Below, piece after piece: positions 27,400 through 52,319 of a stretch of DNA of 64,000 bases; position 1 is the stretch's first letter, and the number at the start of each line of letters is the position of its first letter. The notes under the pieces were generated by a model that saw only the letters and a list, made by a program, of their open reading frames with translations, had not been told where the DNA came from and did no database searches. This DNA is from Candidatus Giovannonibacteria bacterium RIFCSPHIGHO2_12_FULL_44_22. GTDB lineage: Bacteria; Patescibacteriota; Minisyncoccia; UBA11713; 2-01-FULL-45-33. The stretch spans positions 1,521-65,520 of the forward strand of contig MFHU01000003.1 in NCBI GenBank assembly GCA_001778695.1. The letters are read 5' to 3'. Position numbers and translations under genes: made by a program.

Positions 27400-29459
27400 G
27401 ATTCTGTCATCAGCATAGTCCTGTTAAATTTTTGCCAGACGGTTTCGGTGATGAATGGCATGAAGGGGTGCAAAAGTTTTAAAGATTCTTTTAAGGCGCG
27501 CGCCAAAACTTCCGGGTTTGGATTTTTTTTGGATTCCTCCAGATAAATATCGCAAAAATCGTGCCAGAAAAATTCGTAAAGAATATGGAGCGCTTTCCCG
27601 AAATCGTATTTTTCTATAAGTTTATTAACTTGTTTTTGCGTTTTTCGGAGCCTTACAATAATTTTTTTGTCAGCTACAGTTTTCCCGCCCAGGAAGAAGT
27701 CCGACTTCTTTTGGGATCCGAAGTCGGACTTCGAGGATGGTGGACATTGCCCTAAAACAAATCTCGCAGCGTTCCAAATTTTGTTGCAAAACTTTTTTCC
27801 GGCCATCACGTGTTCTTCAGACCATTTTATATCTTGCCCGCCCATGGCTTGCCAGATAAGCCCGAAACGCGTCGCGTCGGCGCCGTATTTATTTATCAGA
27901 TCCATCGGGTCAATTCCCGTGCCTAAAGATTTGGACATTCTCTCTCCGGATTTTGCTAAAATTGTGGCATGAATGATCACATCAGAAAAAGGCACATAGC
28001 CCAAAAATTCTTCGGATGAAAAAACCATCCGTGCCACCCAAAGATTGATGATATCGCGCGCGGTGGAAAGAACCTGCGTCGGATAATAATTTTTTAAATC
28101 TGCGGAATTTTCTGGCCATCCCAAAATCGCGAACGGCCAAAGGGCGGAAGAAAACCAGGTGTCCAAAACATCGTCAACTCCTTCAATCGGAATTTTGTGC
28201 CCCCACCAGATTTGGCGGGAAATGCACCAATCTCTGACATTTTTTAACCAATCAAAATAAATTTTTTCCCAGCGCTTGGGATGAAATTTTATTTTGCCCT
28301 TTTTGACATCTTGAATCGCTAGCTTGGCGAGCTCTTCCATTTTTAAAAACCATTGTTTACTTCTTAAGGGCTCAATGGCTGTGCCACATCGATAACATTT
28401 GGCTACATTATGCGAATAATCTTCTATTTTTTCTATCAGGCCGAGCTTTTCTAATTTTTTCACAACCTTTTCCCGGGCTTCCAAAATTTTAAGCCCATCA
28501 AATTCTGCGCCGGCTTCTTTTGTCATTCGCCCCTTTTCATTAATAACTTGGATGACAGGCAGTTTGTGGGTAATTGCGATTTGTTCGTCTAGCATATCGT
28601 GCGCGGGAGTAATTTTCACAGCGCCAGTCCCGAAATCTATCTCTATTCTCCTATCGGATACAATCGGGATCTCTTTATTTTGAATTGGTAGAATAACTTT
28701 TTTGCTAATTAAGCTTTTATATTTTTTATCTTTGGGGTTTACCGCCACGGCGGTATCTCCCAGCATAGTTTCAGGTCTTGTCGTAGCAATAATGATGAAT
28801 TTATTTTTTTCTTCCGCCAACAGATATTTAATAAACCAAAGTTTCCCTTTTTCTTCATAATATTCCAATTCCAAATCGGAAAGTGACGTTTGGCATCTTA
28901 CACACCAGTTGATAACGCGCTCGCCTTGGTAAATCCAACTCTTTTTTTGGTAATGCAAAAAAGCGGTTTTCACAGCTTCTTGGTACTCCGGGTCCATAGT
29001 AAAGCGGGTTCTAGACCAATCGCAGCTTGCCCCCAGTTTTTTTAATTGGTCTAAAATGATGTTTCCGTATTTCTCTTTCCACTCCCAAACTTTTTCCAAA
29101 AATTTTTTCCGTCCCAAGTCGTGCCGGCTCACGCCTTGTTTTTTTAAATCTTTTTCAACAACATTTTGCGTGGCGATTCCGGCGTGGTCCGTCCCCGGAA
29201 TCCAAAGGACGCGGTAGCCCTCCATCCTTTTTTTACGGATTAAAATATCTTGGATGGCAGCGTTCAGTGCGTGCCCCATGTGCAATGACCCCGTAATGTT
29301 CGGTGGCGGCAAAGCGATAGTGAAAGTTTTATTTTTATTTGGATTTTCAGCCTGAGGCTGATGCGCCTCGGACGCAAAAAAACCGCTCTTTTCCCAGAGC
29401 TTATATATTTTATCTTCATGTTCTTTCGGGTTATACGGCTTATCAAAATCGGAAAGCAT
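27387..29459 (-). CDS. valS: valine--tRNA ligase (short form, 690 aa)
   Basis: PPPNITGSLHMGHA (HIGH region), KMSKS (MSKSLGTG), editing and anticodon-binding regions. Lacks the long C-terminal coiled coil. Contains the in-frame repeat at 27696..27732. Confidence 0.9.
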   Translation of the reverse strand: MLSDFDKPYNPKEHEDKIYKLWEKSGFFASEAHQPQAENPNKNKTFTIALPPPNITGSLHMGHALNAAIQDILIRKKRMEGYRVLWIPGTDHAGIATQNVVEKDLKKQGVSRHDLGRKKFLEKVWEWKEKYGNIILDQLKKLGASCDWSRTRFTMDPEYQEAVKTAFLHYQKKSWIYQGERVINWCVRCQTSLSDLELEYYEEKGKLWFIKYLLAEEKNKFIIIATTRPETMLGDTAVAVNPKDKKYKSLISKKVILPIQNKEIPIVSDRRIEIDFGTGAVKITPAHDMLDEQIAITHKLPVIQVINEKGRMTKEAGAEFDGLKILEAREKVVKKLEKLGLIEKIEDYSHNVAKCYRCGTAIEPLRSKQWFLKMEELAKLAIQDVKKGKIKFHPKRWEKIYFDWLKNVRDWCISRQIWWGHKIPIEGVDDVLDTWFSSALWPFAILGWPENSADLKNYYPTQVLSTARDIINLWVARMVFSSEEFLGYVPFSDVIIHATILAKSGERMSKSLGTGIDPMDLINKYGADATRFGLIWQAMGGQDIKWSEEHVMAGKKFCNKIWNAARFVLGQCPPSSKSDFGSQKKSDFFLGGKTVADKKIIVRLRKTQKQVNKLIEKYDFGKALHILYEFFWHDFCDIYLEESKKNPNPEVLARALKESLKLLHPFMPFITETVWQKFNRTMLMTESWIS
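27696..27732. repeat. palindromic repeat GAAGTCCGACTTC-TTTTGGGATCC-GAAGTCGGACTTC inside valS
   Basis: Two 13-mers that are exact reverse complements of each other; each is itself a mini-palindrome. In-frame (peptide SSKSDFGSQKKSDFF). Confidence 0.75.
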
Positions 29460-29471
29460 AATCTAAAATTA

Positions 29472-30509
29472 TCATAATTTTAGATTTCCGTCAGCTCTGA
29501 TAGTTTTGGGATTTTTTGAGAATTTTTTAGCTTTGAAACGATAATATCCCGCCACGGCGATCATCGCGGCATTATCGCCGCAAAGCCAGAGAGGGGAGAT
29601 ATAAAGCGAGATTTTGGGGAATGATTTTTTGATCATATTTTCCAAAGCCGAGCGGAGTTTTTTGTTTGCGGCAACGCCTCCGCCGACAACTAACGATTTT
29701 GATTTATATTTTCGCAAAGCATCGCCGGTTTTTTTAACCAAAACATCAACCACGGCTTGCTGAAATTCGTTGGCTACGGCTGATTTATCGGCGTTGGGGT
29801 TATCCCGAAGATAATAAAGAACGGCGGTTTTGAGTCCTGAAAAACTAAAATCAAAATCACTGGAATTAATCATCGGGCGAGGAAATAATCCCTTACCCGA
29901 GGTTTTCAATCTCTCCGCCAATTTTGAAATCAAAGGCCCGCCCGGGTAGCCAAGCTTCAACATTCTCGCTACTTTATCAAATGCTTCGCCGGTGGCGTCG
30001 TCTCTAGTTTCTCCCAAAATTTTATAATCTAGATGTTTTTTCATTAAAACCAATTCCGTATGCCCGCCGGAGACGATTAGGGCAATAAGCGGAAATTGAG
30101 GAGATATGCGTCGGAGCCAGCTCGCATAAATATGCCCTTCCAAATGATTTACCGGGACCAGCGGAACACGCCATTTTTTTGCCAAGTCCTTCGCAAAATT
30201 GATTCCCTCCCAAAGCGCCGGCTCCAAGCCTGGGCCCGAGGTTACGGCTATCGCGTTGAACTTAGACGTCCGACGTCCAAGTGGACGTCGGACGTCTTTC
30301 ATAACCCGCGCGAGAATTATCGGCAGATTTTTTCTGTGTTCTCTCATCGCCAAATTTGGCACTACTCCTCCGAATGGCTTATGTATTTTTATCTGCGACA
30401 AAACTTGATTGGAAAGCAAATTAAACTTAGGTGAATTTTGTTTTTCGCTTATTTCCAAAACCGCGATTGCCGTCTCATCGCAGGATGTCTCAATAGCTAG
30501 GATTTTCAT
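29472..30509 (-). CDS. tsaD: tRNA N6-adenosine threonylcarbamoyltransferase
   Basis: MKILAIETSCDETAIAVL N-terminus, His pair, AIAVTSGPGL motif. Contains the in-frame repeat at 30258..30296. Confidence 0.9.
   Translation of the reverse strand: MKILAIETSCDETAIAVLEISEKQNSPKFNLLSNQVLSQIKIHKPFGGVVPNLAMREHRKNLPIILARVMKDVRRPLGRRTSKFNAIAVTSGPGLEPALWEGINFAKDLAKKWRVPLVPVNHLEGHIYASWLRRISPQFPLIALIVSGGHTELVLMKKHLDYKILGETRDDATGEAFDKVARMLKLGYPGGPLISKLAERLKTSGKGLFPRPMINSSDFDFSFSGLKTAVLYYLRDNPNADKSAVANEFQQAVVDVLVKKTGDALRKYKSKSLVVGGGVAANKKLRSALENMIKKSFPKISLYISPLWLCGDNAAMIAVAGYYRFKAKKFSKNPKTIRADGNLKL
30258..30296. repeat. palindromic repeat ACTTAGACGTCCGACGTC-CAAGTG-GACGTCGGACGTCT inside tsaD
   Basis: GACGTCCGACGTC and its reverse complement GACGTCGGACGTC separated by 6 nt. 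Encodes the extra peptide around DVRRPLGRRTSK, next to the conserved AIAVTSGPG motif. Confidence 0.75.
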
Positions 30510-30554
30510 AACGTATAATTGATTTTACGGCTATTTGTTGTAAAATCAATGCGA

Positions 30555-30628
30555 GGCCCTATCGTCTAGCCTGGTTAGGACACCACGCTTTCAATGTGGG
30601 AACACGGGTTCGAATCCCGTTGGGGCCA
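30555..30628 (+). tRNA. tRNA-Glu (anticodon TTC)
   Basis: GGCCCTATCGTCTAGCCTGGTTAGGACACCACGCTTTCAATGTGGGAACACGGGTTCGAATCCCGTTGGGGCCA. Anticodon loop CTTTCAA. Confidence 0.85.
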
Positions 30629-30634
30629 AAAATT

Positions 30635-31294
30635 ATGGAAATTATTTACGAAGATAAAAATCTTATCGCCCTAAATAAACCGGCTGGGGCGAATTTTGAT
30701 TGGGCACTGAAGGAAAAGCCAGAACTTTTGCCCATCCATAGATTGGATAAAGACACTTCCGGGATTATTCTTTTCGCGAAGAGCGAAAAGACGCAAGAGT
30801 ATTTGAGAGAACTTTTTAAAAATCATAAAATCAAAAAAACTTACAAGGCGCTGGTTGTTGGAAATATAAAAAATAATACGGGAGTGATCGATTTAGCAAT
30901 CGGACGCTCCAAAAAAACTCCACTAAAGCGTGTGGCGATAGGAGAGCAACGCGGAAAAATTCGCGAAGCAATAACGGAGTACAAAGTGCTGAAAAGATTT
31001 AACGGACGTCCGACGTCCACTTGGACGTCGGACGTCCAAGTGGGATTCACGCTTATTGAAGCTTATCCAAAAACTGGTCGCACCCATCAAATTCGTTCGC
31101 ATTTTTCCGCGATCGGGCATCCGATAGTTTGCGACAAGCTTTATGCTGGAAAAAAGTTTATCTGCCCCGCCGGGCTTACTCGTCAATTCCTGCACGCCTA
31201 TGCCATAGAATTTAATTTACAAAACGGCTCTCGATTAAGGCTCGAGGCCGATTTGCCGGAGGATTTGAAAAAAGTTTTAGATATGTTATCTTAA
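30635..31294 (+). CDS. RluA-family pseudouridine synthase
   Basis: LIALNKPAG, HRLDKDTSGIILFAKS (catalytic Asp), KTGRTHQIRSHF. Start moved to the Met after the tRNA. Contains the in-frame repeat at 31004..31044. Confidence 0.85.
   Translation: MEIIYEDKNLIALNKPAGANFDWALKEKPELLPIHRLDKDTSGIILFAKSEKTQEYLRELFKNHKIKKTYKALVVGNIKNNTGVIDLAIGRSKKTPLKRVAIGEQRGKIREAITEYKVLKRFNGRPTSTWTSDVQVGFTLIEAYPKTGRTHQIRSHFSAIGHPIVCDKLYAGKKFICPAGLTRQFLHAYAIEFNLQNGSRLRLEADLPEDLKKVLDMLS
31004..31044. repeat. palindromic repeat GACGTCCGACGTC-CACTTG-GACGTCGGACGTC-CAAGTG inside the rluA-family gene
   Basis: Same 13-mer pair as in tsaD, plus flanking CACTTG/CAAGTG inverted hexamers. In-frame peptide GRPTSTWTSDVQ. Confidence 0.75.
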
Positions 31295-31300
31295 TTCATT

Positions 31301-31753: not shown

Positions 31754-31758
31754 AATAC

Positions 31759-31842
31759 GCCCAGGTGGAGGAACTGGCAGACTCGCAGGCTTGAGGTGCC
31801 TGTGGCCGCAAGGCCGTGGGGGTTCAAATCCCCCCTTGGGCA
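31759..31842 (+). tRNA. tRNA-Leu (anticodon GAG)
   Basis: Long variable arm. Anticodon stem CAGGC/GCCTG, loop TTGAGGT. T-arm GGGGGTTCAAATCCCCC. Confidence 0.85.
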
Positions 31843-31934
31843 AAAACGAAATAATTTGACTTGTCGGCGTTTTTTGCTAAGATTAAAGCGCAAGGCCGAG
31901 TTTTATAATTAACATTGCTAAATATTTCAATTTT

Positions 31935-32183: not shown

Positions 32184-32188
32184 TAGTT

Positions 32189-32263
32189 GGTGCCTATAGC
32201 TTAGTGGTAAAGCACCGCTCTGTGGCAGCGGTAACGAGGGTTCGATCCCCTCTAGGCACCCCA
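32189..32263 (+). tRNA. tRNA-His (anticodon GTG), with encoded G-1 and CCA
   Basis: G-GTGCCTATAGCTTAGTGGTAAAGCACCGCTCTGTGGCAGCGGTAACGAGGGTTCGATCCCCTCTAGGCAC-C-CCA. Anticodon loop CTGTGGC. The 3' end overlaps the recombinase stop. Confidence 0.88.
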
Positions 32264-33865
32264 TCGTGCACGAATGGATGCGAAAGCGTCCATTTTTGCT
32301 TGTGCTGTAAGGGTTTTCTCCAGTTCTAACCTTTTATATTCTTGCTCCAGTGCCGGATAGCCATTATTGATGGGTTGAAACCATTCATTCGGCTCAATAA
32401 AGAGCTTTTCGCCTTGTATTATCGGGGTTTTTCCAAGCGCTAGTAAAATTTCCTTTTGCAGTTCTAACCTTCCTTTCGCTTTTGCCTTAAGAAACTCCGC
32501 ACGGGCGTAAGTTGCGAAATGAAATGTCTTTTCCGTAAGCTCCAGCCATTTATCTGCTCTGCTCTCGGTTTCCCTTAGTTTGCTTTTCATATCGCTTATT
32601 TTGGCTTTAAGCTCGCTTTTTTCTTTGAGGTAAGCCTCATCATCAATAAGTTTGCGGTATCGCATTTTGGTAAGCTCATCTAAATTCGCCTGTGCTTCGG
32701 TTAAAGCCTTGTGGCGAGCTTCGTAAATTTTAGTTCGGTCTTCAATCTCGGTATCATTCTTGCTGTTTAGTCCTTCCAAAGCCCATTCCAAGAACTTCGG
32801 CAAAATAGTGTATTTGTCTATTTCTTGCTTAATTTGCGATTCTAAATTATCTGCCGGTATGTTTTTTATCTGCGGACACTTAAAATCCTTTTTTCTTTTG
32901 GTGCAATGGTAATACGTAAAGGTTTTTGCTTCGCTGGTCTTCTTTATAATTTTAGTATGGCTTTCTGCTGTGTAGAGGCATCCGCATTTCCCGCACCTAA
33001 TCGCTCCAGTAAATGCGAAATTATGCGTTTTGGGTCTAGGTTTGCCACTTTTGCCGAGTATGACTTGCACTTGGTCAAATTCTTCAAGAGAAATCATCGG
33101 TTCGTGCTTGCCTTGATATTGTGAGCCGTCTTTTCGCGCTATAAGCCCTGCGTAAAAAGAATTATTGAAAATTTTGTATATTCCGCTTTGGGAAAGCACG
33201 TTATCACTACTCTTTTTGATTTTTCGTGTCCTAAAACCCCATTCGCTAGTGGCAATTCCCAAAACTTTCATTGCGGAGTAATGACCAGTTAACATCAAAC
33301 TCCACATTTTCTTTACCAAGTTAAATCGCTCTGGGTCTTTGATAATGGTATGGTTAATTTTGTCGTTTAAGTATCCAAGCGGTGCTAGGCTCGGTAGCCA
33401 CCCTTTTTCTAGCTTGCTTTGTAAGCCTCGCTTAGTGTTCTTACTTAAATCCAAAATAAATTGGTTGGCCACGCCGGTCTCAACGCTGAATATCAAGACA
33501 TTGTCTTCCGGCACATACTCTCGGTCTATGGTGCGGATGGATTTTAATATGCCTTGCTGGAGCATCCAGCTTAAGTTCCCGCTATCAATAGGATTGCGGG
33601 ACAAGCGGTTAATTTGCCAGCACAAAATACCTTCTGCCTCACCGCTTTTAATTTTATTTAACACCTCGTCAAATACAGGGCGGTTGTCAGGTTGCTTGGC
33701 TGACTTTGCTTCCGTATAGATTTTTACAATATGCAAATTTAAGTCCTTGGCTAACTGCTTTAGCCGGTTTACTTGGTCATCAATGGACTGCACCTGCCGG
33801 TCTTCGCTTTCCGACGACTTCCTTGCGTATAAAAAGTATTTAATTTTTGGTTTATCTTGATTCAT
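32252..33865 (-). CDS. large serine recombinase (phage-integrase type)
   Basis: 537 aa. Resolvase catalytic domain (YARKSSESEDRQVQSIDDQ with catalytic Ser), recombinase domain, Cys-rich zinc ribbon (CGKCGC...HC), C-terminal coiled coil. Confidence 0.88.
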   Translation of the reverse strand: MNQDKPKIKYFLYARKSSESEDRQVQSIDDQVNRLKQLAKDLNLHIVKIYTEAKSAKQPDNRPVFDEVLNKIKSGEAEGILCWQINRLSRNPIDSGNLSWMLQQGILKSIRTIDREYVPEDNVLIFSVETGVANQFILDLSKNTKRGLQSKLEKGWLPSLAPLGYLNDKINHTIIKDPERFNLVKKMWSLMLTGHYSAMKVLGIATSEWGFRTRKIKKSSDNVLSQSGIYKIFNNSFYAGLIARKDGSQYQGKHEPMISLEEFDQVQVILGKSGKPRPKTHNFAFTGAIRCGKCGCLYTAESHTKIIKKTSEAKTFTYYHCTKRKKDFKCPQIKNIPADNLESQIKQEIDKYTILPKFLEWALEGLNSKNDTEIEDRTKIYEARHKALTEAQANLDELTKMRYRKLIDDEAYLKEKSELKAKISDMKSKLRETESRADKWLELTEKTFHFATYARAEFLKAKAKGRLELQKEILLALGKTPIIQGEKLFIEPNEWFQPINNGYPALEQEYKRLELEKTLTAQAKMDAFASIRARWGA

Positions 33866-33997
33866 AAAAACTTGAAGGGACGGTCTGGTTCACCCAATCA
33901 CTTGCTCCGAAGAGTAGCCTACTGGCAGACCGCCCCTTAAAGGACAGTAAGCAATAAAAAATCTTCGGACATTTATTGTGATTAAAGGTGAACATTA

Positions 33998-35224
33998 TCA
34001 TTGTATATTGTCTTTTTTGTCCTTGCAAGTGGATAAATACTCTAACGAGATTGGCTCAAATTTTTGCAACTCTTGGCCTATGTATAGTGTTCCATCCGAG
34101 AGCGGCAAATCGTTGGCCAGTTTTTGTGCCGTAGCCAACTTTTCATCCAAGCGGCTATCTGATTTTTTAGACCACACCTTGCCCATTTCTTTGCGGAGTG
34201 TTTTTGCCCCGTGTTTTTTTATAATTGAAGCAAGGGCGTAGCTGATAAGTGCCTTATTATAGCTATGGACGCTTTGCTCTTTCTCTTTTGCTCTTTTCAA
34301 AATGTGAAGTAATAAATCTATATCGCCGTTTGAGTTTAATAATGCAATTTGATTTTCTGGTTTAGCAAGTATTCTTTGCCACGATGCATTCAAAATGTCT
34401 TTCCACAAATTTTCGGTAAATAAATCGGAAAGTTTTACAGGCGTGGCATAGGGTCTTTTAAGAAATCGGTTAACTTCACTCCTAATGGTCTGCGCCTTAT
34501 TTAGACGATATTCGTATCTGAAAACCTCCGTATTTTGTAAATTATAAAGTTCAATGACTTCTTTTTCATATGCCGTTTTTTGTTTTTCCAAACTTTTACC
34601 GCTTGGCCGGAGCATTTCTTGTATTTTATCGTAAAAAGCCCATTCTCTAGTTCCGCAAAAAAGATGGAGCGTTTCGTTTTCGTTTTGGTTTTTGCTTCGT
34701 ATGTCCTTTGTATTTCCATACGCCTTGCCAATATCTACGCGCGACAACTCTGCTAATATGGGGCGCAACGGACGGTCTGCGGGCAGTGGTATATTTTTAC
34801 AAAAATGCACCACGGATACAGAAGCATCGGCAATGGTTTGCGAAGTGATGTATATACCAATCTCTGGCAAGCGTTCCATCAGCGTAGTTAACAATTTGTG
34901 GTAGTCGCTCGGTAGGGCTTCCTGTAGGCTGTTTTCGTTTATCAGCTTTGGCGCAGAGAACTTTAATTTCATATCGTAATATATGCTTCTGCTTCGGTTG
35001 TCTGCGTTTTCGTATATTTCAACCCCCGGGTAAGTTAGACCATTATCTATGTCGGCGTGTAGAACAAAACTCCGCAGGTAGGGGACTTTTTTATTGTCTG
35101 CTCGCTTTCGGTCTTTTGGTGTCAAATCCGCGTAAGGTCTGGTGGAAAATTCGTGATTAAACATAGCCCAGTCTGCTACTCGGAATTTATCTATGCCGCG
35201 AATGCGAATTATGACTGTATCCAT
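33998..35224 (-). CDS. putative rolling-circle replication initiator (Rep_trans-like)
   Basis: 408 aa. HLFCGTREWAFYDKIQE resembles the Rep_trans motif (xYIGSRxSxxFxRVYDK). Assignment tentative. Confidence 0.4.
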   Translation of the reverse strand: MDTVIIRIRGIDKFRVADWAMFNHEFSTRPYADLTPKDRKRADNKKVPYLRSFVLHADIDNGLTYPGVEIYENADNRSRSIYYDMKLKFSAPKLINENSLQEALPSDYHKLLTTLMERLPEIGIYITSQTIADASVSVVHFCKNIPLPADRPLRPILAELSRVDIGKAYGNTKDIRSKNQNENETLHLFCGTREWAFYDKIQEMLRPSGKSLEKQKTAYEKEVIELYNLQNTEVFRYEYRLNKAQTIRSEVNRFLKRPYATPVKLSDLFTENLWKDILNASWQRILAKPENQIALLNSNGDIDLLLHILKRAKEKEQSVHSYNKALISYALASIIKKHGAKTLRKEMGKVWSKKSDSRLDEKLATAQKLANDLPLSDGTLYIGQELQKFEPISLEYLSTCKDKKDNIQ

Positions 35225-35229
35225 ATTTA

Positions 35230-35529
35230 TTAAATTATTTTGTTGTCCTTAAATTTCTTGGAATCCTTCTGCGGTGTTTCTTGGCGGTCTCTTTGCACCG
35301 CTTCGTATTCTTCTTGGGTTATCGGCTTATAAACCAGCTCAACTAGACGCATCAGCTTAATCCCTTTTTCAAGGGCTTCTTTCCGGCTGATTTCTTTTCC
35401 GAATTGCTCTTTATAGAGCGTTTGGAATTTGGTTATCTGTGCGTCTGACAGCATATACAGCCATTCTAAAAAACCCTCTAAGCCAAAAAGAGCCAGAGGG
35501 TTTGAGAGGGTTTTTGGGCATTCAGACAC
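35230..35529 (-). CDS. hypothetical small helical protein
   Basis: 99-aa ORF between the rep-like and large hypothetical genes. Confidence 0.35.
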   Translation of the reverse strand: MSECPKTLSNPLALFGLEGFLEWLYMLSDAQITKFQTLYKEQFGKEISRKEALEKGIKLMRLVELVYKPITQEEYEAVQRDRQETPQKDSKKFKDNKII

Positions 35530-35595
35530 AAAAAATAAAAGGGCTTTTTGTCAGCCCCTCAATACCGAAACAAGCTGTTGTCCAAAATTTACTCT

Positions 35596-37239
35596 CTAAC
35601 CCTCTACTTCAAGCCACATATTTTGCTTCCTGTCGTCAAACTGATATTTTAATTTACCCCGTAGTTTCTCGTATCTTTCCTTTTGCAATTCCTTTTTTGT
35701 ATTTTCTATAATCTGCAACATTCTTTGTGCTCTGGTATTAGAATCGTTTAGCGTTGTGTCGTTTTTGTCTTTAGGCAACCTTATTGATTCAAAAACAGAA
35801 GCAATAGTTCTATGTGCGCCAAATGGACTGCAAAGTATATCTAACAACCTATAATGTCTTGAATTTAGCCCGCCTATTTTTATTGGGGTTGCTTGTTTGT
35901 AAAACTTAAAATAACCCTGCCCATTTCTAGCTTCTGTATAGGGTTTAGGGTTGTCTTGCATTAAGACTTCGTCTGCGGCGGGTTTTGGTGATACCATCTC
36001 ACTCACGCTATGCAAAGGCGTAAATGCGTCAAATTGAAGGCGAAGTATATTTATTTTTAATAGAGCATTGTTTTCAAGCTTGAGCACAAATTTATAAATA
36101 AAATCGTCCAGTTGTAACCCCAATTTTTTGCCTTCCGTTTCAAGCCATTCGTTCAAGATTTCTGCTCTGTATTGTTCTGAATCTCTATTAAATTCCCCTG
36201 CCGCTACACCAAACTCTGCGTTTGATATATTTGGACTTTGTGAGCTTTGCGTCCCCTTACGCCTCAACTTGTCTATTTCATAAATTTCATCTCGCAATAT
36301 TACAATAAGTTTTTCTCCAACAATTCTGTTTACGGCGTTCACCATAATTTTAGCTTCTTCTTTATCAAATTCTGCCCTGTTTAGTGTTGATAATGGTATT
36401 TTAACAATGCATTGCAATTTACCGCAGTCAGCTAACTCTATTTGGTTATAAACCAATTCAACAAATTTTTTGATTTTTCTTAAGTTATCTTCAGAAAACC
36501 CGTCTAAATTTGCTTTATTTTTTACTCCGGCTATCATTCTGGTTTGCATTGCCTCGCCAGATTTTTTGGCGGCTGTATATTTTGCCGCTTCTTTCAACCA
36601 TTCTTGGTAGTCGTCTTTGCTGGCTGAGGCGGTCAATACACTATTTATATATTCAAAAAGTTTATTTGCGGTTTCCTTGCCGTTAATATCGTAATAAATA
36701 GGATTGAGAAATTCGGTGAGAACTACCGACAAGGGTTTTGCCCGCTTTCTCGCATAGGCGTGCCGAAACAACAAATCCGTAAGCGTGTAACTTCCCTCAT
36801 TAAGAAACAACGCAACATTATCAAATTGAGCAAATGCGACAACAGCCCTCAACCATTCGTCTTTGCTAAATAATTTTTCAATTTGTTTGGCAATAGAAAA
36901 AACCGCCTCTCTTGGTATAAACGGTGTTTGCCGCAACACATAGTGCTCCTTTAGGTATGCTACTTGCTTTTTGACCGCTTCTTGGTCAACCAGTAATGCG
37001 TCATAAGACATTTCGTGGGCTAGATTCCCATACTTATCCTCAATTTCTACTGGCTTGTCTTCCCAAACAAGCAGTTTCTCATATTCAAATTGCTCGCAAA
37101 TCTCCTTTGCTTCGTTGGCGGTCATATCAAATTGTTTTGCAAAAGCATCGGTTATGTCGGGGAGTTCATAGTAGCCATCCCGCAAAAGTTTTTCTGCGAA
37201 ATAAAGCATTTTTGTGCACGAGAGATAATCAATTTTCAT
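35596..37239 (-). CDS. hypothetical protein (547 aa) with LVWEDKP motif shared with the Type III Mod N-terminus
   Basis: No NTPase or nuclease motif seen. Segment EKLLVWEDKPVEIEDKY parallels KKYGLVWEDKPEDVVEQ at the start of the adjacent mod gene. Confidence 0.45.
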   Translation of the reverse strand: MKIDYLSCTKMLYFAEKLLRDGYYELPDITDAFAKQFDMTANEAKEICEQFEYEKLLVWEDKPVEIEDKYGNLAHEMSYDALLVDQEAVKKQVAYLKEHYVLRQTPFIPREAVFSIAKQIEKLFSKDEWLRAVVAFAQFDNVALFLNEGSYTLTDLLFRHAYARKRAKPLSVVLTEFLNPIYYDINGKETANKLFEYINSVLTASASKDDYQEWLKEAAKYTAAKKSGEAMQTRMIAGVKNKANLDGFSEDNLRKIKKFVELVYNQIELADCGKLQCIVKIPLSTLNRAEFDKEEAKIMVNAVNRIVGEKLIVILRDEIYEIDKLRRKGTQSSQSPNISNAEFGVAAGEFNRDSEQYRAEILNEWLETEGKKLGLQLDDFIYKFVLKLENNALLKINILRLQFDAFTPLHSVSEMVSPKPAADEVLMQDNPKPYTEARNGQGYFKFYKQATPIKIGGLNSRHYRLLDILCSPFGAHRTIASVFESIRLPKDKNDTTLNDSNTRAQRMLQIIENTKKELQKERYEKLRGKLKYQFDDRKQNMWLEVEG

Positions 37240-37394
37240 AGTGATAGTAATTTAACAAACTAAGCCATTTTTCTCAATGTTGTCCCGAATTTTGAGCTAT
37301 TACTTCAATTTGCGCCCAAATAGTGATATTTTACATTTATACAATTAAATATGGTTATTGCCTAACCCTCGTGAATTAAAAACTCCGAGGTATG

Positions 37395-37537
37395 GCAGAA
37401 AAACTGTTCAGGTATATTAAGCTCTTCGTCCAGAGCACCTGAACAGTCATATTCCGAAAGGAGTATGGGTGGCGAAAGCCATCGCTGGCGGAGAGCTTTG
37501 TGTTTTCCGCCAACAAGGCATAAATAAAACTGTTCAG
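37395..37537. promoter_or_regulatory. three copies of a CTGTTCAGGT 10-mer (two direct, one inverted) upstream of mod
   Basis: AAAACTGTTCAGGTAT at about 37400 and again immediately before the mod ATG. ACCTGAACAGT (inverted) at about 37440. Candidate operator or phase-control sites. Confidence 0.35.
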
Positions 37538-37539
37538 GT

Positions 37540-39147: not shown

Positions 39148-39148
39148 T

Positions 39149-41398: not shown

Positions 41399-41400
41399 CT

Positions 41401-41586
41401 TTGAATATGGCAACATTTGGTAGCGGGACGCCGGAGAGCCCGGACAACAAATCTATAAGAGCCCAGCTTGAGGAGCTCAAGAAGCTCAACTCATCTACTG
41501 CTTCTTACAACAAGCTCATCATTGGCATAGCGTTGTCCACGCTTATCGTGAGCATTGTCGGCGTGATAATTGCGCTATGGAAATAA
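41401..41586 (+). CDS. small single-TM protein
   Basis: 61 aa with a C-terminal TM helix. Tightly packed after res. Confidence 0.3.
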   Translation: MNMATFGSGTPESPDNKSIRAQLEELKKLNSSTASYNKLIIGIALSTLIVSIVGVIIALWK

Positions 41587-42098
41587 ACAAAGAAACAATA
41601 AAAGAGTATGCCAATAGATACGATAGGCGTAGTAAGGGAACAGATGATGAGATTGCGGCAAATGAAATAACGAAATGGTTTAAGACGCATAGGTATTTGG
41701 ACAAGGAAAGATTTATGAGAGTTGCGCTTTGGAAGTCAAAAAGACCACAAAGGCATTACGCAAGCAATGACAATGCGATTGTTAAAGAAATCACCCAGTT
41801 TAGTTTGGCAACGAAAAACGAGGAGGTAAGATTAAAAGTCCTTTTTGCCATCAACGGCGTGTCATATCCTATCGCCTCGGTCATTCTTCACTTCGCATTT
41901 CCAGATAAATACCCGATATTGGATTTCAGAGTGATATGGTCTCTCGGTATAAAACAGCCCAAAAGCTATAATTTTGCTTTTTGGCAAAAGTATTGTGATA
42001 ATGTAAGGGATATTTCAAAAGAAATGGGCGAAAGCATAAGAACGGTGGATAAAGCTCTATGGGAGTATTCAAAAGAGCATCAAACTAAAGAGAAATAA
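41577..42098 (+). CDS. hypothetical protein with helix-hairpin-helix-like segment (OGG/EndoIII-like pattern)
   Basis: LKVLFAINGVSYPIASVILHFAFPDKYPILDFRVIWSLGI resembles the LxGVGxxTAxxIL...PVDxHV HhH-GPD pattern. Tentative. Confidence 0.35.
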   Translation: MEINKETIKEYANRYDRRSKGTDDEIAANEITKWFKTHRYLDKERFMRVALWKSKRPQRHYASNDNAIVKEITQFSLATKNEEVRLKVLFAINGVSYPIASVILHFAFPDKYPILDFRVIWSLGIKQPKSYNFAFWQKYCDNVRDISKEMGESIRTVDKALWEYSKEHQTKEK

Positions 42099-42266
42099 TG
42101 ATGTAATCACTTTGCATTTCTTCCCAATAGTAATTGAAGATATATATTTAGATTGGGAATCAAAAATAAAAGAAGATGGGACTATTGAAGTTTTGCTCAC
42201 CAATTTTTATAAGCCATAAATAACACAATTAGTGCGAGATGGTAAATGGTATAGTATGTTAGAAAT

Positions 42267-42710
42267 ATGACCAAATTATTAAAGGAGCAATTTGTTCAGG
42301 ATTGTATTTCTAACTATTTATCAAAACTCGGCTACCACAAACAAGAGCCGAAAGGATTAAGAGAGCACGGAGTTGATATAAAAGTTAAGCATAAAAATTT
42401 CGGCAGGTATTATTTGGTTGAGGTTAAGGGAGACCCCGGTAAAGACGTAAAATCACCGGGCGGTAGCAGGAATAGCTGTATGAACTCGGCAATCGGGCAA
42501 ATTATTACCAGAATGCATACCAACCGCAAAAGGGGCTATAAATATGGTTACAAATACGGCATCGGTTTCCCGATTTCTTTTAAGGAAAGAGTTATTAACA
42601 AAATACCCTACGATGTCTGCGACAAACTAAATCTTAATTTGTTTTTTGTTCACCCGTCTGGGGTAGTTGAAGCATATAATGATAAAAAATTAAAAGCATT
42701 ACAAAAATGA
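42267..42710 (+). CDS. hypothetical PD-(D/E)xK-like nuclease-fold protein
   Basis: HGVDIKVKH...YYLVEVKGD gives a D...E-x-K arrangement typical of restriction-endonuclease-like folds. Tentative. Confidence 0.35.
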   Translation: MTKLLKEQFVQDCISNYLSKLGYHKQEPKGLREHGVDIKVKHKNFGRYYLVEVKGDPGKDVKSPGGSRNSCMNSAIGQIITRMHTNRKRGYKYGYKYGIGFPISFKERVINKIPYDVCDKLNLNLFFVHPSGVVEAYNDKKLKALQK

Positions 42711-42988
42711 TTTCCAATTCAAACGAAGAAAAATCAGCGAAGAAAACCGATGATTTTAAGTTGAGCGATTTGTGTAAGTGCGGACATACATACGGCTCGC
42801 ATCCCTTCCTAAAAATACGCACCGAAGGCTTTCCAATGCCGCCCGCTTATTCTTGCATTAGTTGTAAATGCCAAAAATTTGAACTAAGTAGCAAGTATAT
42901 TACCGAAGACCGGAAACAAGAACTGCAACAGCTATTAGTAAATGCCGTGAAAGAAAAGCTAAGGAACAAGAGTGAAAATAACGAGTAG
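42707..42988 (+). CDS. Cys-rich small protein (putative zinc-binding)
   Basis: CKCGH...CISCKC arrangement. 93 aa. Confidence 0.4.
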   Translation: MISNSNEEKSAKKTDDFKLSDLCKCGHTYGSHPFLKIRTEGFPMPPAYSCISCKCQKFELSSKYITEDRKQELQQLLVNAVKEKLRNKSENNE

Positions 42989-43027
42989 CGGTAGAAAAAC
43001 TTTTTAGAACAAGTTAGATTTGGCTAT

Positions 43028-43225
43028 ATGAAAACAATCAAAGAAATATCGGAAAAGTGGGTTAAAAACTCACTTCGGGCATATCTTGAGGGCGAAAAAG
43101 ACCTCAAGTGGATTCAAGGCATTTTACGAGGAATGAGCAAGAACGAAGTAATGGGGCTTTTAAGCTCTCTACAATATGGCTTACCGGAGAGGCGCAATGA
43201 ATTGAATCAATGGCTCAATACTTAG
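43028..43225 (+). CDS. hypothetical small protein
   Basis: 65-aa ORF in a co-directional tight array. Confidence 0.3.
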   Translation: MKTIKEISEKWVKNSLRAYLEGEKDLKWIQGILRGMSKNEVMGLLSSLQYGLPERRNELNQWLNT

Positions 43226-43237
43226 TTAAGATAATTT

Positions 43238-43510
43238 ATGTTTTTCAAAAGCAGATTAAAGGAAATAGAAGAGGAAATTCTGAGAAAACGGAATGGTATT
43301 TTTGGGGATGGCACTGTCAATTTTGGCAATTCTTTTAATGCACGAAAAACAGAAATTGAGGCACAGGTTGCGATTTTAGAAGCGGAAAGACGTTTCATTA
43401 TAGATAGGAGAAATGGTTGGAAACCGAAAGTTATTTGGGATGTGCTTGTCCCAATTGTCGTAGCTGTGGCAACTGCTTATATCGTGGCCACTTTCGTCTC
43501 CGGGGCTTAA
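43238..43510 (+). CDS. hypothetical protein with C-terminal TM anchor
   Basis: 90 aa. Coiled-coil N-terminus, then TM helix (VIWDVLVPIVVAVATAYIVATFV). Confidence 0.35.
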   Translation: MFFKSRLKEIEEEILRKRNGIFGDGTVNFGNSFNARKTEIEAQVAILEAERRFIIDRRNGWKPKVIWDVLVPIVVAVATAYIVATFVSGA

Positions 43511-43689
43511 TAGTTTATGACCAAACATTACGACAAAGAAACGAGCGAAGAAATAGACGAAAATATCCACGAGCTGATGGAAAGCCACAATTTAGACAAA
43601 GATGAAGCGGAAAAAGTCCAAGAAATTATGGACGATTACGACTTGGACGAAAGCGATGCCGTTGAACTCAAAGATGACTTATAAAATTT

Positions 43690-43965
43690 ATGTTAAATTT
43701 CAGCCCCAAAAAATGCCTTTGTAATGTTGCCGATTGCGGCAAATGTTTAACTCTGGGGTGCACAAATGATAGCTGTAGCACTCATCGCATAGTAACTAAA
43801 TGGCGATACAGAAAACACCTTTTGGAAAGTTTAACAAACAAGATTGAAAAAATGCGTGACAGCAAACCTGAAAAAGAATTGGCGACTTTACGAAAAGATA
43901 TAAAAACTTGCAAAGAAGAAGTTAAAAGGTTGGGCGAGGTTATGGGTATGAAAAATAATGAGTAG
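43690..43965 (+). CDS. zinc-ribbon small protein
   Basis: N-terminal CLCNVADCGKCLTLGCTNDSCSTH (six Cys plus His), then a coiled coil. Confidence 0.4.
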   Translation: MLNFSPKKCLCNVADCGKCLTLGCTNDSCSTHRIVTKWRYRKHLLESLTNKIEKMRDSKPEKELATLRKDIKTCKEEVKRLGEVMGMKNNE

Positions 43966-44015
43966 CGGGATGAGGCTGAGTAGTAAAAATTACAAAAACC
44001 TGATATTTATTAAAT

Positions 44016-44612
44016 ATGCCTTTGGACAATTCTCAAAATCAAGCAACAAACGCAATCTATGTCTTTATTGACGCATCCAATTTGTGGGAGGCATTCAAGG
44101 CGAAGGGTAGATTTTTAGATTTTGAGAAGACGACAAAGTATATTAAAGAAAAGTTTAGCGGAACATCTATAAAAGCTTTTTACTATACGGCTTATCCAGC
44201 AGAGGGCACAAGAAATTACAGTTTGGACGGCAAACATAAATTTTTTACATACCTAAAAAAGGCATTGGGATTCGCAGTTATAAAGAAGGAGCTGAAAAGA
44301 ATCAGTGTAATAAATGAGCACGGCGAAGCAATAGAAGAAAAAGGCAATATGGATGTAGAGATGACCATAGATGCTATGCTTCATTTCAAAAAATATGACA
44401 CGGCGATTTTCTTTACTGGAGATTCCGATTTTCTGGCACTTGTAACATATTTGAAAAATCACGGGAAAAAAGTTTTTATATTTTCTTCAGAAAACAATGT
44501 GTCGCAGGAGTTGAGAACTGGCGCAAATGGCTATACCGATATTCTGGATGTTGATGGTGTCTGGGGCAAAGAGTTGAAACACAGAGCCGAATTAGAAAAG
44601 GAGGGTAGATAA
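44016..44612 (+). CDS. NYN-domain (LabA-like PIN-fold) putative RNase
   Basis: IYVFIDASNL, VEMTIDAM and FTGDSDF acidic residues match the NYN/LabA pattern. Confidence 0.78.
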   Translation: MPLDNSQNQATNAIYVFIDASNLWEAFKAKGRFLDFEKTTKYIKEKFSGTSIKAFYYTAYPAEGTRNYSLDGKHKFFTYLKKALGFAVIKKELKRISVINEHGEAIEEKGNMDVEMTIDAMLHFKKYDTAIFFTGDSDFLALVTYLKNHGKKVFIFSSENNVSQELRTGANGYTDILDVDGVWGKELKHRAELEKEGR

Positions 44613-44615
44613 AAA

Positions 44616-44639
44616 GCAACCCTCCTCGCGGAGGGTTGC
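44616..44639 (+). terminator. stem-loop after the NYN gene (terminator-like, no T-tract)
   Basis: GCAACCCTCC-TCGC-GGAGGGTTGC perfect 10-bp stem. Confidence 0.4.
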
Positions 44640-45060
44640 CCTTGGATGTTATACCCTTTCAGTTATGACTAACCGAAAGACAATATTAGTGTAGCAAATC
44701 AGCATACCCCGTCAATAACAAGTATTGGGTATAAATAGTGAATAGCGGGGGCGGGGTAAGTTTATGCGTTGGAGTAAGTTCTTAAATCCGGCACATAAAT
44801 ATATTCCTTTTGTCTTGCTATAATAGTTCTAACGTCCTCTACAATGCGACCCAAAATTATAAAAACAAAATTTCTAAATAAAAAAGGGCCCCGCGCGTGA
44901 AAGCGAAGGGCCTCAAAAGATGATAAACATAGCAAAGATAATTTTTTAATCGCAAGTCAGGATTATTAGTCCGACTAAAGTCTTTCGACTTCCCGCAAGG
45001 TTTGATCTTATCTCCCCCGGGGCCAATTAATATTTTATATTTGCCAGTTTTGTTTGGAAA

Positions 45061-47706: not shown

Positions 47707-47869
47707 TTTCCCCCCTTTTCTGTTATTCGGTTTTAGTTTGTTTATTTTCCTTTAGTTTTCAAGGTATTTGAACCTGAAACGATGCTAGCAAATAGCCGAT
47801 TTTCTGTCAATATCTGCTTTTTTATTTGAAATAAAAAATATATAATGGATATGTTAGCAGAAAATTATT

Positions 47870-48888: not shown

Positions 48889-48903
48889 ACTATTATATTC
48901 TAT

Positions 48904-50229: not shown

Positions 50230-50242
50230 ATAGAAATTCTTA

Positions 50243-51148
50243 ATGAATAAAAAACTTTTAGCTTTTCTGATATTTTTGGCTTTGGGGGCTTACTTGATTT
50301 ACGGCAATTTTTTCAAGAACGCTCTGCCGGCAGTACCGGTTTACACTCCTAACAAGGTTGCGGAGCAGGCCAAAGACTTGCCCAAAAAAGAAGTTGCCGC
50401 CCCGCCACCATTAAAAGCCAAGAAAGAAGCGCCGACCGCCGAGATAATTTTGACTGCCGACGGAGTTTTCTTTCGGGCAAATCAAGAAAGAAAAAAAGCC
50501 GATTTGCCAGATCTGGCGCCAAATTCTAAACTTACAGCTTCTGCCTTGGCCAAAATCCGCGATATGTTTAAAAATCAATATTTCGCGCACGAATCGCCTG
50601 CGGGCAAAGGAGTCGGCGATTTGGCGGAAACAGAAGGTTACGATTTTATTTTAATCGGCGAAAATCTCGCCTTGGGAAATTTTGAAGGGGATAATGCGTT
50701 GGTGGATGCTTGGATGGCGAGTCCCGGACACCGCGCCAATATTTTGGGGAGCCGTTATAAAGAAATTGGCATCGCGGTGGGGCGGGGAATGTTTCCCGCC
50801 GAAGGCGGGTCCGCCTTTGGCGGAGAAATTCGGGAGACCTGGCTCGCGGTCCAGCATTTCGGGCTTCCGCTTTCGACTTGCCTCAAACCCGATGAAAATT
50901 TAAAAACCGGCATTGAATCTTTTGAAGCGCAGATTAAAAAATTAGGAGTTACTGCTTCGGCCCTTAAAGCCGAACTTGAATCCGAAAAACCGCAAAACAG
51001 AAACGAATACGAGGCCTATAACACCAAAGTTGAAGAATACAACGCTCTAGCTCAACAAATGAATTCTTTAATTGACCAGGTAAAGAGCATTATTCCTGTT
51101 TATAACCAGCAAATAAAAACATTCAACCAATGCGCGGGAATAAATTAA
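50243..51148 (+). CDS. secreted CAP/SCP/PR1-domain protein
   Basis: Signal/TM N-terminus. GENLALGNF...WMASPGHRANIL...YKEIGIAV is the CAP signature. Confidence 0.75.
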   Translation: MNKKLLAFLIFLALGAYLIYGNFFKNALPAVPVYTPNKVAEQAKDLPKKEVAAPPPLKAKKEAPTAEIILTADGVFFRANQERKKADLPDLAPNSKLTASALAKIRDMFKNQYFAHESPAGKGVGDLAETEGYDFILIGENLALGNFEGDNALVDAWMASPGHRANILGSRYKEIGIAVGRGMFPAEGGSAFGGEIRETWLAVQHFGLPLSTCLKPDENLKTGIESFEAQIKKLGVTASALKAELESEKPQNRNEYEAYNTKVEEYNALAQQMNSLIDQVKSIIPVYNQQIKTFNQCAGIN

Positions 51149-51741: not shown

Positions 51742-51743
51742 GC

Positions 51744-52319
51744 TTGAATATTATCATGAAACAGGTTCCGCGCGCAATGGTTTTGGGTCAAAAATTTTTT
51801 AATCGGACGGCGATTAAGGTGGCGCGGGAACTTTTGGGAAAATTTTTATGCCGCCGAGCCTCACTTAGACGTCGGACGTCTAAGTGCTATATGGTCACTG
51901 AAACCGAAGCTTATGTCGGGCCGGAAGATAAAGCTTCGCACGCGCACAGAGGAAAAACTTTGCGTAATACTCCTATGTTTGGCCCCGCCGGCCGGTGGTA
52001 TGTTTATTTTACTTACGGAATGCATTGGATGCTCAATATTGTAACCGGATCAGATGGTTATCCGGCGGCGGTTTTAATCCGTGCTCTTGGAAGTCCGACT
52101 TCCCCTGGAAGTATGACTTCCGTAGACGGCCCAGGGCGCGTTACTAAATTTTTAAAAATTGATAGGCGTTTTAACGATAAAAGGGCTGATAAAAAGATTG
52201 GATTATGGATAGAAAACCATGGAATTAAAATAAAAAAGCATAAAATTAAAAGTATGCCGCGCGTGGGCGTAGATTATGCCGGAAAATGGGCAAAAAAACC
52301 GCTTCGCTTTACTTTTTAG
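51744..52319 (+). CDS. mpg: DNA-3-methyladenine glycosylase (Mpg/AAG family)
   Basis: ARELLGKFL...VTETEAY...ASHAHRGKT...MFGP...VYFTYGMHWMLNIV...AVLIRAL. Carries two in-frame repeat insertions. Confidence 0.85.
   Translation: MNIIMKQVPRAMVLGQKFFNRTAIKVARELLGKFLCRRASLRRRTSKCYMVTETEAYVGPEDKASHAHRGKTLRNTPMFGPAGRWYVYFTYGMHWMLNIVTGSDGYPAAVLIRALGSPTSPGSMTSVDGPGRVTKFLKIDRRFNDKRADKKIGLWIENHGIKIKKHKIKSMPRVGVDYAGKWAKKPLRFTF
51862..51886. repeat. 25-nt perfect palindrome CACTTAGACGTC-G-GACGTCTAAGTG inside mpg
   Basis: Related to the tsaD and rluA units (GACGTC core, ACTTAG/CAAGTG flanks). Encodes RRASLRRRTSKC, inserted between the LLGKFL and VTETEAY motifs. Confidence 0.75.
52089..52121. repeat. GGAAGTCCGACTTCC-CCTG-GAAGTATGACTTCC imperfect palindromic repeat inside mpg
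   Basis: Same GAAGTCCGACTTC unit as in valS. Encodes GSPTSPGSMTSVDG, inserted after the AVLIRAL motif. Confidence 0.7.

Follow-up and report, generated by a model that had tools for sequence, protein, structure and literature searches.

The window analysed here is a stretch of 64,000 nucleotides (43% GC) from the genome of a Candidatus Giovannonibacteria bacterium (Parcubacteria, Candidate Phyla Radiation or CPR), an ultra-small bacterium abundant in Rifle aquifer groundwater. We analyzed a family of short palindromes carried by conserved genes of this window. A sequence-only reading had reported such repeats, in frame, at five loci, i.e. in valS, tsaD, an rluA-family gene and twice in mpg, and all five were confirmed at their positions (Table 1). 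Each of them carries the 13-mer GACGTC[C/G]GACGTC or GAAGTC[C/G]GACTTC, and in all five units the frame is kept and no stop codon is present. We designate F1 the single unit [C]ACTTRG-N3-TC-S-GA-N3-CYAAGT[G] (23-25 nt), whose foot is ACTTRG...CYAAGT. The double form of F1 (34-39 nt) is composed of a 13-nt core centred on C, the hexamer CACTTG, the complementary core centred on G, and YAAGT. Double units are present in tsaD and in the rluA-family gene, with 32 of 32 nt in common, and a single unit at mpg site 1. In the valS copy and at mpg site 2 the ACTTRG foot is missing and the core is a related one, GAAGTC-S-GACTTC. A 13-mer paired with its reverse complement had been proposed for all five loci, but mpg site 1 is one self-palindromic unit and mpg site 2 a tandem self-palindromic pair with one decayed member.

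Table 1. Positions of the palindromes, of their host genes and of other features in the window.
Feature	Position	Strand	Remarks
valS palindrome	27696..27732	-	arms 27696-27708 GAAGTCCGACTTC and 27720-27732 GAAGTCGGACTTC, 13/13 complementary, 11-nt loop; translated as SKSDFGSQKKSDF
tsaD double F1 unit	30260..30297	-	coding strand GACGTCCGACGTC-CACTTG-GACGTCGGACGTC-TAAGT; hairpin 30264-30297 with 16-nt arms, 100% complementary, 2-nt centre; ACTTAG foot from 30260; translated as DVRRPLGRRTSK
rluA-family double F1 unit	31004..31043	+	31004-31037 with 16-nt arms, overlapped by 27-nt palindrome 31017-31043; translated as GRPTSTWTSDVQV
mpg site 1, single F1 unit	51862..51886	+	perfect 25-nt palindrome CACTTAGACGTCgGACGTCTAAGTG; translated as SLRRRTSKC
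mpg site 2	52089..52121	+	tandem 15-nt self-palindromic units: GGAAGTCCGACTTCC 52089-52103 and decayed direct copy GGAAGTATGACTTCC 52107-52121; translated as GSPTSPGSMTS
valS host gene	27387..29459	-	690 aa
tsaD host gene	29472..30509	-	345 aa
rluA-family pseudouridine synthase host gene	30596..31294	+	listed GTG start 30596
mpg host gene, 3-methyladenine DNA glycosylase	51777..52319	+	180-aa form from M12 (P0121)
F2 hairpins	11100..11150	-	two adjacent, CCCCCTCTTAcatTAAGAGGGGG and TCCCCCTTAgagTAAGGGGGA, intergenic, directly after the nusA stop codon
F3 hairpin	55365..55396	+	ACCTCCACACCAAcacattTTGGTGTGGGGGT, overlaps the start of the sigma-70 open reading frame
Island, large serine recombinase	32252-33865	-
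Island, LOOT RNA	37359-37483		91 bits
Island, N6/N4 DNA methylase	37540-39147
Island, ResIII helicase	39092-41398
Island, NYN-domain protein	44016-44612
Island, two large open reading frames			no Pfam match

The view that these repeats form a dispersed palindromic family translated as loop peptides in conserved genes was borne out. In an AlphaFold model of Mpg (predicted TM score, pTM, 0.82), three segments have a predicted local distance difference test (pLDDT) below 50, namely N-terminal residues 4-8, residues 40-44 and residues 121-124. The palindrome-encoded peptides lie at about residues 40-48 and 116-126, and the two internal low-pLDDT segments fall inside them, in loops that connect beta strands. 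The peptides do bring extra residues, as the sequence-only reading had it, but relative to solved homologues TsaD gains a net 5 residues only, and Mpg site 1 only 2; the palindromes in part replace a variable loop and are no simple addition to it. Their description as GC-rich islands in AT-rich genes is only moderately true (52-68% GC, against 43% for the genome). F1 is read in its symmetric phase (x-L-G/R...K-x) at 8 independent sites, in the T-W...Q-V phase at 3 and in the third phase at none. The T-W...Q-V phase always uses TGG and CAA, so that the stops TAG and TAA are avoided. This phase preference is a weak trend. The identities of the host genes were confirmed. A tRNA-Glu (30555-30628) covers the initial 33 nt of the rluA-family open reading frame as listed, whose true start is probably the ATG at 30635, because orthologue alignments begin at M14. 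The M12-start form of Mpg is in public records (KKS23559.1 and others, named Ca. Giovannonibacteria by NCBI), and an exact look-up of the TTG-start form returned no public record.

The five-locus pattern is far above chance. With up to 2 mismatches the 13-mer has 13 matches in the window for 0.43 expected, a number equalled in none of 100 shuffles, and 6 perfect hairpins have arms of 12 nt or more, compared to 0.06 in locally shuffled sequence. Folding, which the sequence-only reading had proposed as a check, was positive: as single-stranded DNA the units reach -10.7 to -21.4 kcal/mol (z = -3.6 to -6.9). Naturally reverse-complementary codon pairs (Leu CTT/Lys AAG, Gly GGC/Ala GCC) could seed quasi-palindromes, and chance, coding constraint or an assembly or amplification artefact might be suspected. 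Against this stand the large excess over shuffles, a codon-level identity beyond what the amino acids require, and the presence of related palindromes in genomes of unrelated studies. Moreover the sequence is the same in independent ENA, JGI and NCBI assemblies, and the stretch 41777-62319 is 100% identical to ENA scaffold L044. Such an origin is effectively refuted, and we regard it as extremely improbable.

Simple functional labels were also considered. A gathering-threshold Rfam scan of the window gave only tRNAs and the LOOT RNA, and no family at these loci. A restriction-site explanation was rejected: GACGTC occurs 15 times (10 of them inside F1) for about 11 expected, and without F1 there is neither avoidance nor enrichment. 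A terminator role was likewise discarded, as no T-tract or U-tract is present and the sense strand is unflagged.

We compared 28 TsaD neighbourhoods from GTDB representative genomes and several Mpg loci, designated by L numbers. For the Mpg peptides, 36 orthologues were used for site inspection and 88 for counting reverse-complement-compatible codon pairs at site 1. Part of the palindrome set was collected by a perfect-palindrome search; the orthologous-site set was reached via protein homology instead. The match L041 137, flagged as F1 by regular expression, was a false one and was excluded from the F1 count. Orthologues that are 55-85% identical hold palindromes at matching positions. At Mpg site 1 the 25-mer is nucleotide-identical in the window, L037 and L041. 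Outside it, mpg has only 65-67% nucleotide identity among the three, and only 51-59% of same-amino-acid codons are identical; within it every synonymous position is constant. Other perfect palindromes with the same foot occupy this site in L040 (ACTTGGCAACCcGGTTGCCAAGT), L042 (CACTTGGCGTCCaGGACGCCAAGTG) and L043 (CACTTGGCGGTGgCACCGCCAAGTG). The corresponding peptides differ (SLRRRTSKC, QLGNPVAKC, PLGVQDAKC, SLGGGTAKC) though the DNA symmetry is kept, which rules out a protein-level RRxS/T motif. SLRRRTSKC is found in at least 9 orthologues, it or a close variant recurs among the 36, and the pattern L[GRS]xxx[AS]K is represented by at least 12 variants. At least three reverse-complement-compatible codon pairs are present at this site in 31 of the 88 orthologues (background 0.75% per position). 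Mpg site 2 is a hypervariable insertion hot-spot, with inserts of up to ~45 residues among the 36 orthologues. In L037, L041 and L042 it contains an in-frame insert of ~135 nt, the ends of which form a long-range inverted repeat, AATATTTTTCAAGAC ... GTCTTGAAAAAT.

The other sites behave similarly. At TsaD site 1 perfect hairpins of different sequence are present in the window (AGACGTCCGACGTCCActTGGACGTCGGACGTCT), L002 (GGAAGTCCGGCTTCCactcGGAAGCCGGACTTCC) and L003 (AGAAGCCAAGCTTCCActTGGAAGCTTGGCTTCT); other GC-rich hairpins are found in L001, L010 and L025, and L007 and L027 are empty. The TsaD peptide PLGSRTSKF was found in L002. For ValRS, the window, L010 and L003 share identical arms, those of L004 show one C.A mismatch, L002 has a fully compensated pair, GAAACCTGGTTTT-11 nt-AAAACCAGGTTTC, and L040 is empty. 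At the RluA site L005 is empty, the window gene being 39 nt (13 codons) longer, L004 contains a single compensated unit (ACTTGGGTGTCcGACACCCAAGT) and L002 an unrelated hairpin. In CobA, a PduO-type adenosyltransferase, units are present in L037 and L043, and the same gene is without a unit in the window and L040. Altogether 17 of the 18 orthologous palindromes reached by homology are perfect, a small sample (Mpg-1 6/6, TsaD-1 3/3, ValRS 4/5, CobA 2/2, RluA 2/2). This comparison indicates that F1 units are old and have been vertically inherited at many sites, in insertion-tolerant loop hot-spots of conserved proteins. F1 units occupy surface loops of conserved proteins in Candidatus Giovannonibacteria and related Parcubacteria. 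The recent spread proposed in place of ancestry is not sustained, because Mpg, ValRS and TsaD orthologues carry matching peptides or palindromes at the same positions, the very finding that the sequence-only reading had named as refuting it.

The key feature of these palindromes, absent from the sequence-only reading, is the perfect compensatory co-variation of their arms between species. In double units 99% of the cells are paired and in single units 95%, proportions that are inflated, and true by construction, in the searched set because perfect palindromes were the target of the search. Twelve of the 16 pairs of the double units have changed on both sides, which none of 500 shuffles matched, and in single units 27 cells have changed on both sides for 7.9 expected in shuffles. 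Orthologous palindromes whose two arms have changed in step imply that the DNA symmetry itself is copied and maintained. Pairing is almost exclusively of the Watson-Crick type: one G.T was observed in 120 cells (the 10 innermost pairs of the single-unit stem), and none in double-unit stems. A constraint at the RNA level would be expected to tolerate G.U, so the near-absence of G.T points to DNA. Finally, complementarity reaches the 1-2 nt centre, where according to folding the innermost pairs are unable to form in the hairpin; copying fits this pattern better than thermodynamic selection.

Several further marks are those of copying. The centre of the unit flips between C and G in Mpg and TsaD-2 units, and between CT and AG in CobA of L043 and L037. 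In TsaD of L009, L016, L018 and L021 the IYANF codons are followed by their own reverse complement, which in each case mirrors the synonymous codons of that species. In the motif QIARLAQ[F/S]A, a synonymous CAA/CAG change of Gln is mirrored as an F/S amino-acid change. Most copies are in lineage-specific loop insertions; the exceptions are these IYANF and QIARLA palindromes, in which one arm is a conserved motif. At the site of the IYANF palindrome, slippage has also expanded CCAAAATT in tandem. Such in-frame arrays of CCAAAATT-like units lie between HIYANF/HIYASW and PKFP in L009, L007, L021, L028 and L014, with peptides NPKSQIQNPK and similar. Slippage and inverted duplication share one hot-spot of TsaD. 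Among Mpg forms of the same length, KLGGRTAKY stands beside the ancestral-type RLGGRTVRL, which suggests that a palindrome may grow in place. Reverse complements of adjacent sequence, multi-base mirror changes and centre inversion, i.e. the marks of template switching, were all found, in a comparison made without tree polarisation. These patterns point to copying of DNA by fold-back or template switching and to conversion of one arm by the other, and not to selection on RNA structure or to classical transposition.

Compensatory covariation is nevertheless the classic mark of a selected structure. The palindromes could be functional cis-elements under selection, either DNA sites (cruciforms, binding of dimeric proteins) or mRNA structures (pauses in translation that aid folding, RNase III, control of stability), and their placement inside genes would then be due to the scarce intergenic space of a compact genome. 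The Mpg 25-mer fixed at all synonymous positions of three species, the palindrome kept despite the F/S change in QIARLAQxA, and the many lineages which hold some hairpin at identical loop positions agree with this. However, close orthologues are hairpin-free (TsaD in L007 and L027, RluA in L005, ValRS in L040), unrelated hairpin families and simple tandem repeats replace one another, and the near-exclusive Watson-Crick pairing extends into the unfoldable centre. The lack of a Rfam match and of a U-tract, with a sense strand that is not terminator-like, also argues against it. A mosaic allele of the window mpg lacks the site-1 unit as well: in the read-derived P0001 (SRR3989338; compared with window 51744-51975), residues 77-191, i.e. 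the C-terminal 115, are identical to the window, whereas residues 13-76 (64 aligned) are ~53% identical and carry no site-1 palindrome. The mosaic structure of P0001, an exact look-up of which gave no public record, indicates homologous recombination with a breakpoint near codon 73-77. Overall we consider a selected function of the palindromes unlikely, and their confinement to genes for want of intergenic space equally so.

Copying within a site does not account for the whole distribution. The sequence ACTTAGACGTCsGACGTCTAAGT (F1a) is present in Mpg of the window, L037 and L041, at a different TsaD site of L001, and at the second TsaD site of L010. Similarly CTTAGCAATCgGATTGCTAAG is shared by TsaD of L001 and a different gene of L019, and a related unit at a third TsaD site of L006. 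The ACTTRG/CYAAGT foot is kept across ~10 host sites. Since identical units recur in unrelated genes and genomes, some inter-locus copying exists. All true F1 copies found are within long stop-free frames, and within 82 kb of the host genome F1 is present at the five reported loci only.

Two other hairpin families, F2 and F3, occur both in frame and between genes. At nusA the F2 copies are C5/G5 hairpins nested in an outer CCCCC/GGGGG stem (-22.4 kcal/mol). F2 (CCCCCTTA...TAAGGGGG) is in frame in TsaD of L010, L040, L001, L019 and L020, and in L010 (7742-7771) a near-identical sequence is translated. The F3 pattern is ACCCCCACACCAA...TTGGTGTGGGGGT, also written ACC(T/C)CCACACCAA...TTGGTGTGGGGGT. 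Near-identical F3 copies are in frame in mfd (TRCF) of the same genome, ~9 kb past the window end (L074 254-284), and in TsaD of L040 (CP066687.1, 18019-18049).

These observations raise the possibility of classical selfish mobile elements, similar to Rickettsia palindromic elements (RPE), to repetitive extragenic palindromes (REP) with their REP-associated tyrosine transposases (RAYT), or to miniature inverted-repeat transposable elements (MITE). A trans-acting transposase or nuclease would insert F1-F3, and in-frame loop insertions would survive. The 32 nt common to tsaD and rluA with a unit also in mpg, the matching units at non-orthologous sites of different genomes, and the double location of F2 and F3 are in favor of this. 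The presence of units is also patchy (RluA empty in L005, ValRS empty in L040, CobA filled only in L037 and L043), and different hairpin families swap at one TsaD site. Furthermore, the foot is conserved while the apical stem varies and stays complementary, an arrangement reminiscent of the structure-specific recognition in REP/RAYT systems.

The search for such an enzyme and for traces of its activity was negative. A Pfam scan revealed no transposase (Y1/IS200-type, RAYT or other) among the 60 open reading frames of the window, and the gene tables of ~18 kb of flanks contain no Y1/RAYT gene, the searched part being the window and flanks of a ~0.65-Mb genome. The gene tables of related loci list no transposase either. 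The sole recombinase found is an island-type serine recombinase. In the comparison of filled and empty sites we observed no terminal inverted repeats apart from the palindrome itself and no clean target-site duplication. The mobilisation system acting in trans that had been suggested thus finds no counterpart here. In the viral contigs scanned F1a and F1b have 0 matches, and the 26 matches of the general pattern, which all come from a small number of conserved phage genes, include none that is palindromic. A GIY-YIG (T5orf172-type) nuclease-domain protein (54741-55259) adjoins the sigma factor, and this synteny is kept in L042 and L044. No second nuclease-like candidate was seen in the window, and nothing ties this one to the palindromes.

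Strain-level variation leads in the same direction. The only strain-level indel found distinguishes L038 from L037 (99.96% identical): 47 nt are gone, including the 20-bp-arm F1 hairpin of CobA. An 8-nt direct repeat, AAATTTGG, flanks the indel (L037 4521-4562 versus L038 4118-4125), and the reading frame of the shorter allele is broken. Because the empty form is frameshifted and a direct repeat lies at the edges, this loss appears to be hairpin-stimulated slippage and not a clean excision. In the species of the window itself, the search for strain polymorphism revealed a clonal population, with 0-2 differences in 20 kb, none of them at palindromes. This frame-breaking deletion, together with the missing transposase, target-site duplication and viral copies, weighs against mobile elements. 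So do the persistence of copies at orthologous sites over deep divergence, the heterogeneity of copies within one genome (L002/L041), and palindromes plainly built from adjacent host codons. We therefore find an origin as classical mobile elements rather improbable.

Known repeat systems were examined for comparison. RPE, the system to which the repeats had been likened, are ~150 bp long and form ten families, each with a conserved encoded peptide (Ogata et al. 2000, summarised in PMC10969869), and lose repeat identity over time (PMC6649704). F1 shares with them palindromic repeats lying in frame in unrelated conserved housekeeping genes of a small genome, translation into tolerated peptides of surface loops, and the lack of a known transposase. 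In contrast, F1 units are 23-39 nt long, far from the ~100-150 bp of RPE, they are perfect, their arms covary between species, their peptides vary at one orthologous site, and they belong to another phylum. RPE are thus the closest behavioural analogue of F1, and the likeness holds for behaviour but not for family membership. The ~135-nt inserts at mpg site 2 of L037, L041 and L042 are RPE-sized, in contrast to the short units of the window.

REP and the related bacterial interspersed mosaic elements have in common with F1 a small size, a palindromic form, a dispersed distribution, and a foot that is conserved while the stem varies. REP lie outside genes in numerous imperfect copies and are linked to a RAYT gene, whereas F1 copies are located in stop-free frames. 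The yeast mitochondrial byp elements are untranslated, the ribosome hopping over them. They and related GC-rich palindromic clusters resemble F1 in that hairpins richer in GC lie within coding genes of a compact genome richer in AT (PMC6649704 cites the Magnusiomyces case), but F1 units are stop-free, in frame, and their peptides are kept in orthologues. MITE (review PMC10969869) possess terminal inverted repeats and target-site duplications and measure 50-500 bp, and some of them (ERIC, i.e. enterobacterial repetitive intergenic consensus, and RPE) are within genes. For F1 none of these hallmarks was found: the whole unit is the palindrome, and filled and empty sites reveal no consistent duplication. 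The in-frame tandem repeats of Borgs (PMC9879509) are replication-error repeats tolerated in proteins, as are the tandem expansions at the TsaD hot-spot; they differ in being direct and not inverted, and in belonging to disordered regions of an archaeal extrachromosomal element.

The coding palindromes of Nematomorpha mitochondria are perfect, with a binary identity and a dynamic gain and loss; template switching or repeat conversion has been proposed for them, and they are viewed as parasitic (PMC6649704). F1 resembles them as perfect inverted repeats in coding sequence with no excess of imperfect copies (17/18 perfect, in a small sample). Nematomorpha repeats reach 284 bp, have both arms in conserved protein regions and form no dispersed sequence families (PMC6649704), whereas F1-F3 are tiny, mostly lineage-specific loop insertions in dispersed families on a bacterial chromosome, and the two arms of F1 are not both in conserved protein parts. 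Alike in behaviour to the Nematomorpha palindromes and to RPE, F1 is a member of neither group. Template switching creates perfect stems and multi-base compensatory changes (PMC8794818). As in quasi-palindrome correction, a single event can yield a perfect stem, compensatory changes and loop inversion (PMC8794818, PMC5453318), which fits the perfect-to-centre arms, spacer flips and inverted copies of adjacent host codons seen in F1. It differs in having been described for RNA genes and for genomes generally, not as a generator of in-frame protein insertions (PMC8794818, PMC5453318), and this process alone spreads no unit between loci. The literature searched, whose coverage is incomplete, yielded no description of in-frame palindromes in CPR bacteria.

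The explanation we favor, to which we give about an even chance of being right, is that of conversion-maintained coding palindromes made by template switching, with limited inter-locus copying. Palindromes would be created, extended and kept perfect by copying one arm from the other at the DNA level, through intra-strand template switching or fold-back synthesis during replication (quasi-palindrome correction, arm-to-arm conversion). Purifying selection on the host protein would let pass only in-frame, stop-free versions located in loops. The loss of an entire hairpin through slippage would be counter-selected because it is usually out of frame, and the outcome would be a coding palindrome that perpetuates itself and is in essence parasitic. 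In a second, less defined step, units would be copied from locus to locus, whether by ectopic template switching, by short-patch gene conversion or by some enzyme, which would account for the identical units in unrelated genes and genomes.

Several points speak against this explanation. Local template switching alone leaves identical units at unrelated loci unexplained (tsaD/rluA 32/32, F1a, CTTAGCAATCgGATTGCTAAG and the foot). The identity of the Mpg 25-mer amid an mpg of 65-67% identity calls for selection or repeated conversion. The percent paired is true by construction in the palindrome-search subset, the counts are low, and orthology makes many of the copies non-independent. Lastly, no polymorphism exists in the clonal population of the window, so that no event was caught in the act.

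A broader proposal, doubtful at this stage, is that Parcubacteria possess a lineage-wide active process which makes and homogenises palindromes by seeding, extending, flipping and copying them into coding loops. It could stem from some peculiarity of a replication and repair machinery that is reduced in this lineage, or from a dedicated structure-specific enzyme for which the ACTTRG/CYAAGT foot would be the recognition site. If true, this process would be a major unrecognised source of lineage-specific insertions in CPR proteins. It would perhaps also be behind the very high inverted-repeat density of CPR phyla: in a tree-of-life survey the highest densities of all phyla were those of the CPR Ca. 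Campbellbacteria and Ca. Gracilibacteria (bioRxiv 10.1101/2024.09.29.615628). CPR account for a large part of bacterial diversity, and lineage-specific insertions that lack an explanation abound in their proteins. In the essential genes considered here (TsaD, ValRS, RluA, Mpg, PduO-type adenosyltransferase, Mfd) many such insertions correspond to translated palindromes or to tandem or inverted copies of neighbouring codons, which ties the evolution of protein length to a mutational process at the level of replication. The system also offers a natural test of whether compensatory covariation reflects functional structure or whether template switching alone is sufficient, with many orthologous sites, strict Watson-Crick pairing and coding constraint as an internal control. 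In practice, such hairpins are a confounder for covariation-based RNA discovery, protein alignment and annotation in CPR genomes.

The rest of the window contains a few other features of interest. The region 32190-45000 adjoins a tRNA-His (32190-32263), has a lower GC content (37-41%) and is probably an integrated island (Table 1); an attachment (att) direct repeat was sought for it and none was found. At its right edge the intergenic stretch 44950-45000 contains TTAGTCCGACTAA and AAGTC...GACTT fragments, and may be a decayed F1-like copy. A GC-rich palindrome with one mismatch, CCGCCGAAGGCGGgtCCGCCTTTGGCGG (50796-50823), is located inside a CAP-domain open reading frame (50243-51148). The region 15564-23900 carries a type IV pilus/competence-like cluster, with PilB-like T2SSE, PilC-like T2SSF, a pseudopilin with its N-methylation motif, and PilM, and pilin genes of type IV secretion system (T4SS) type are present at 62012-63270.

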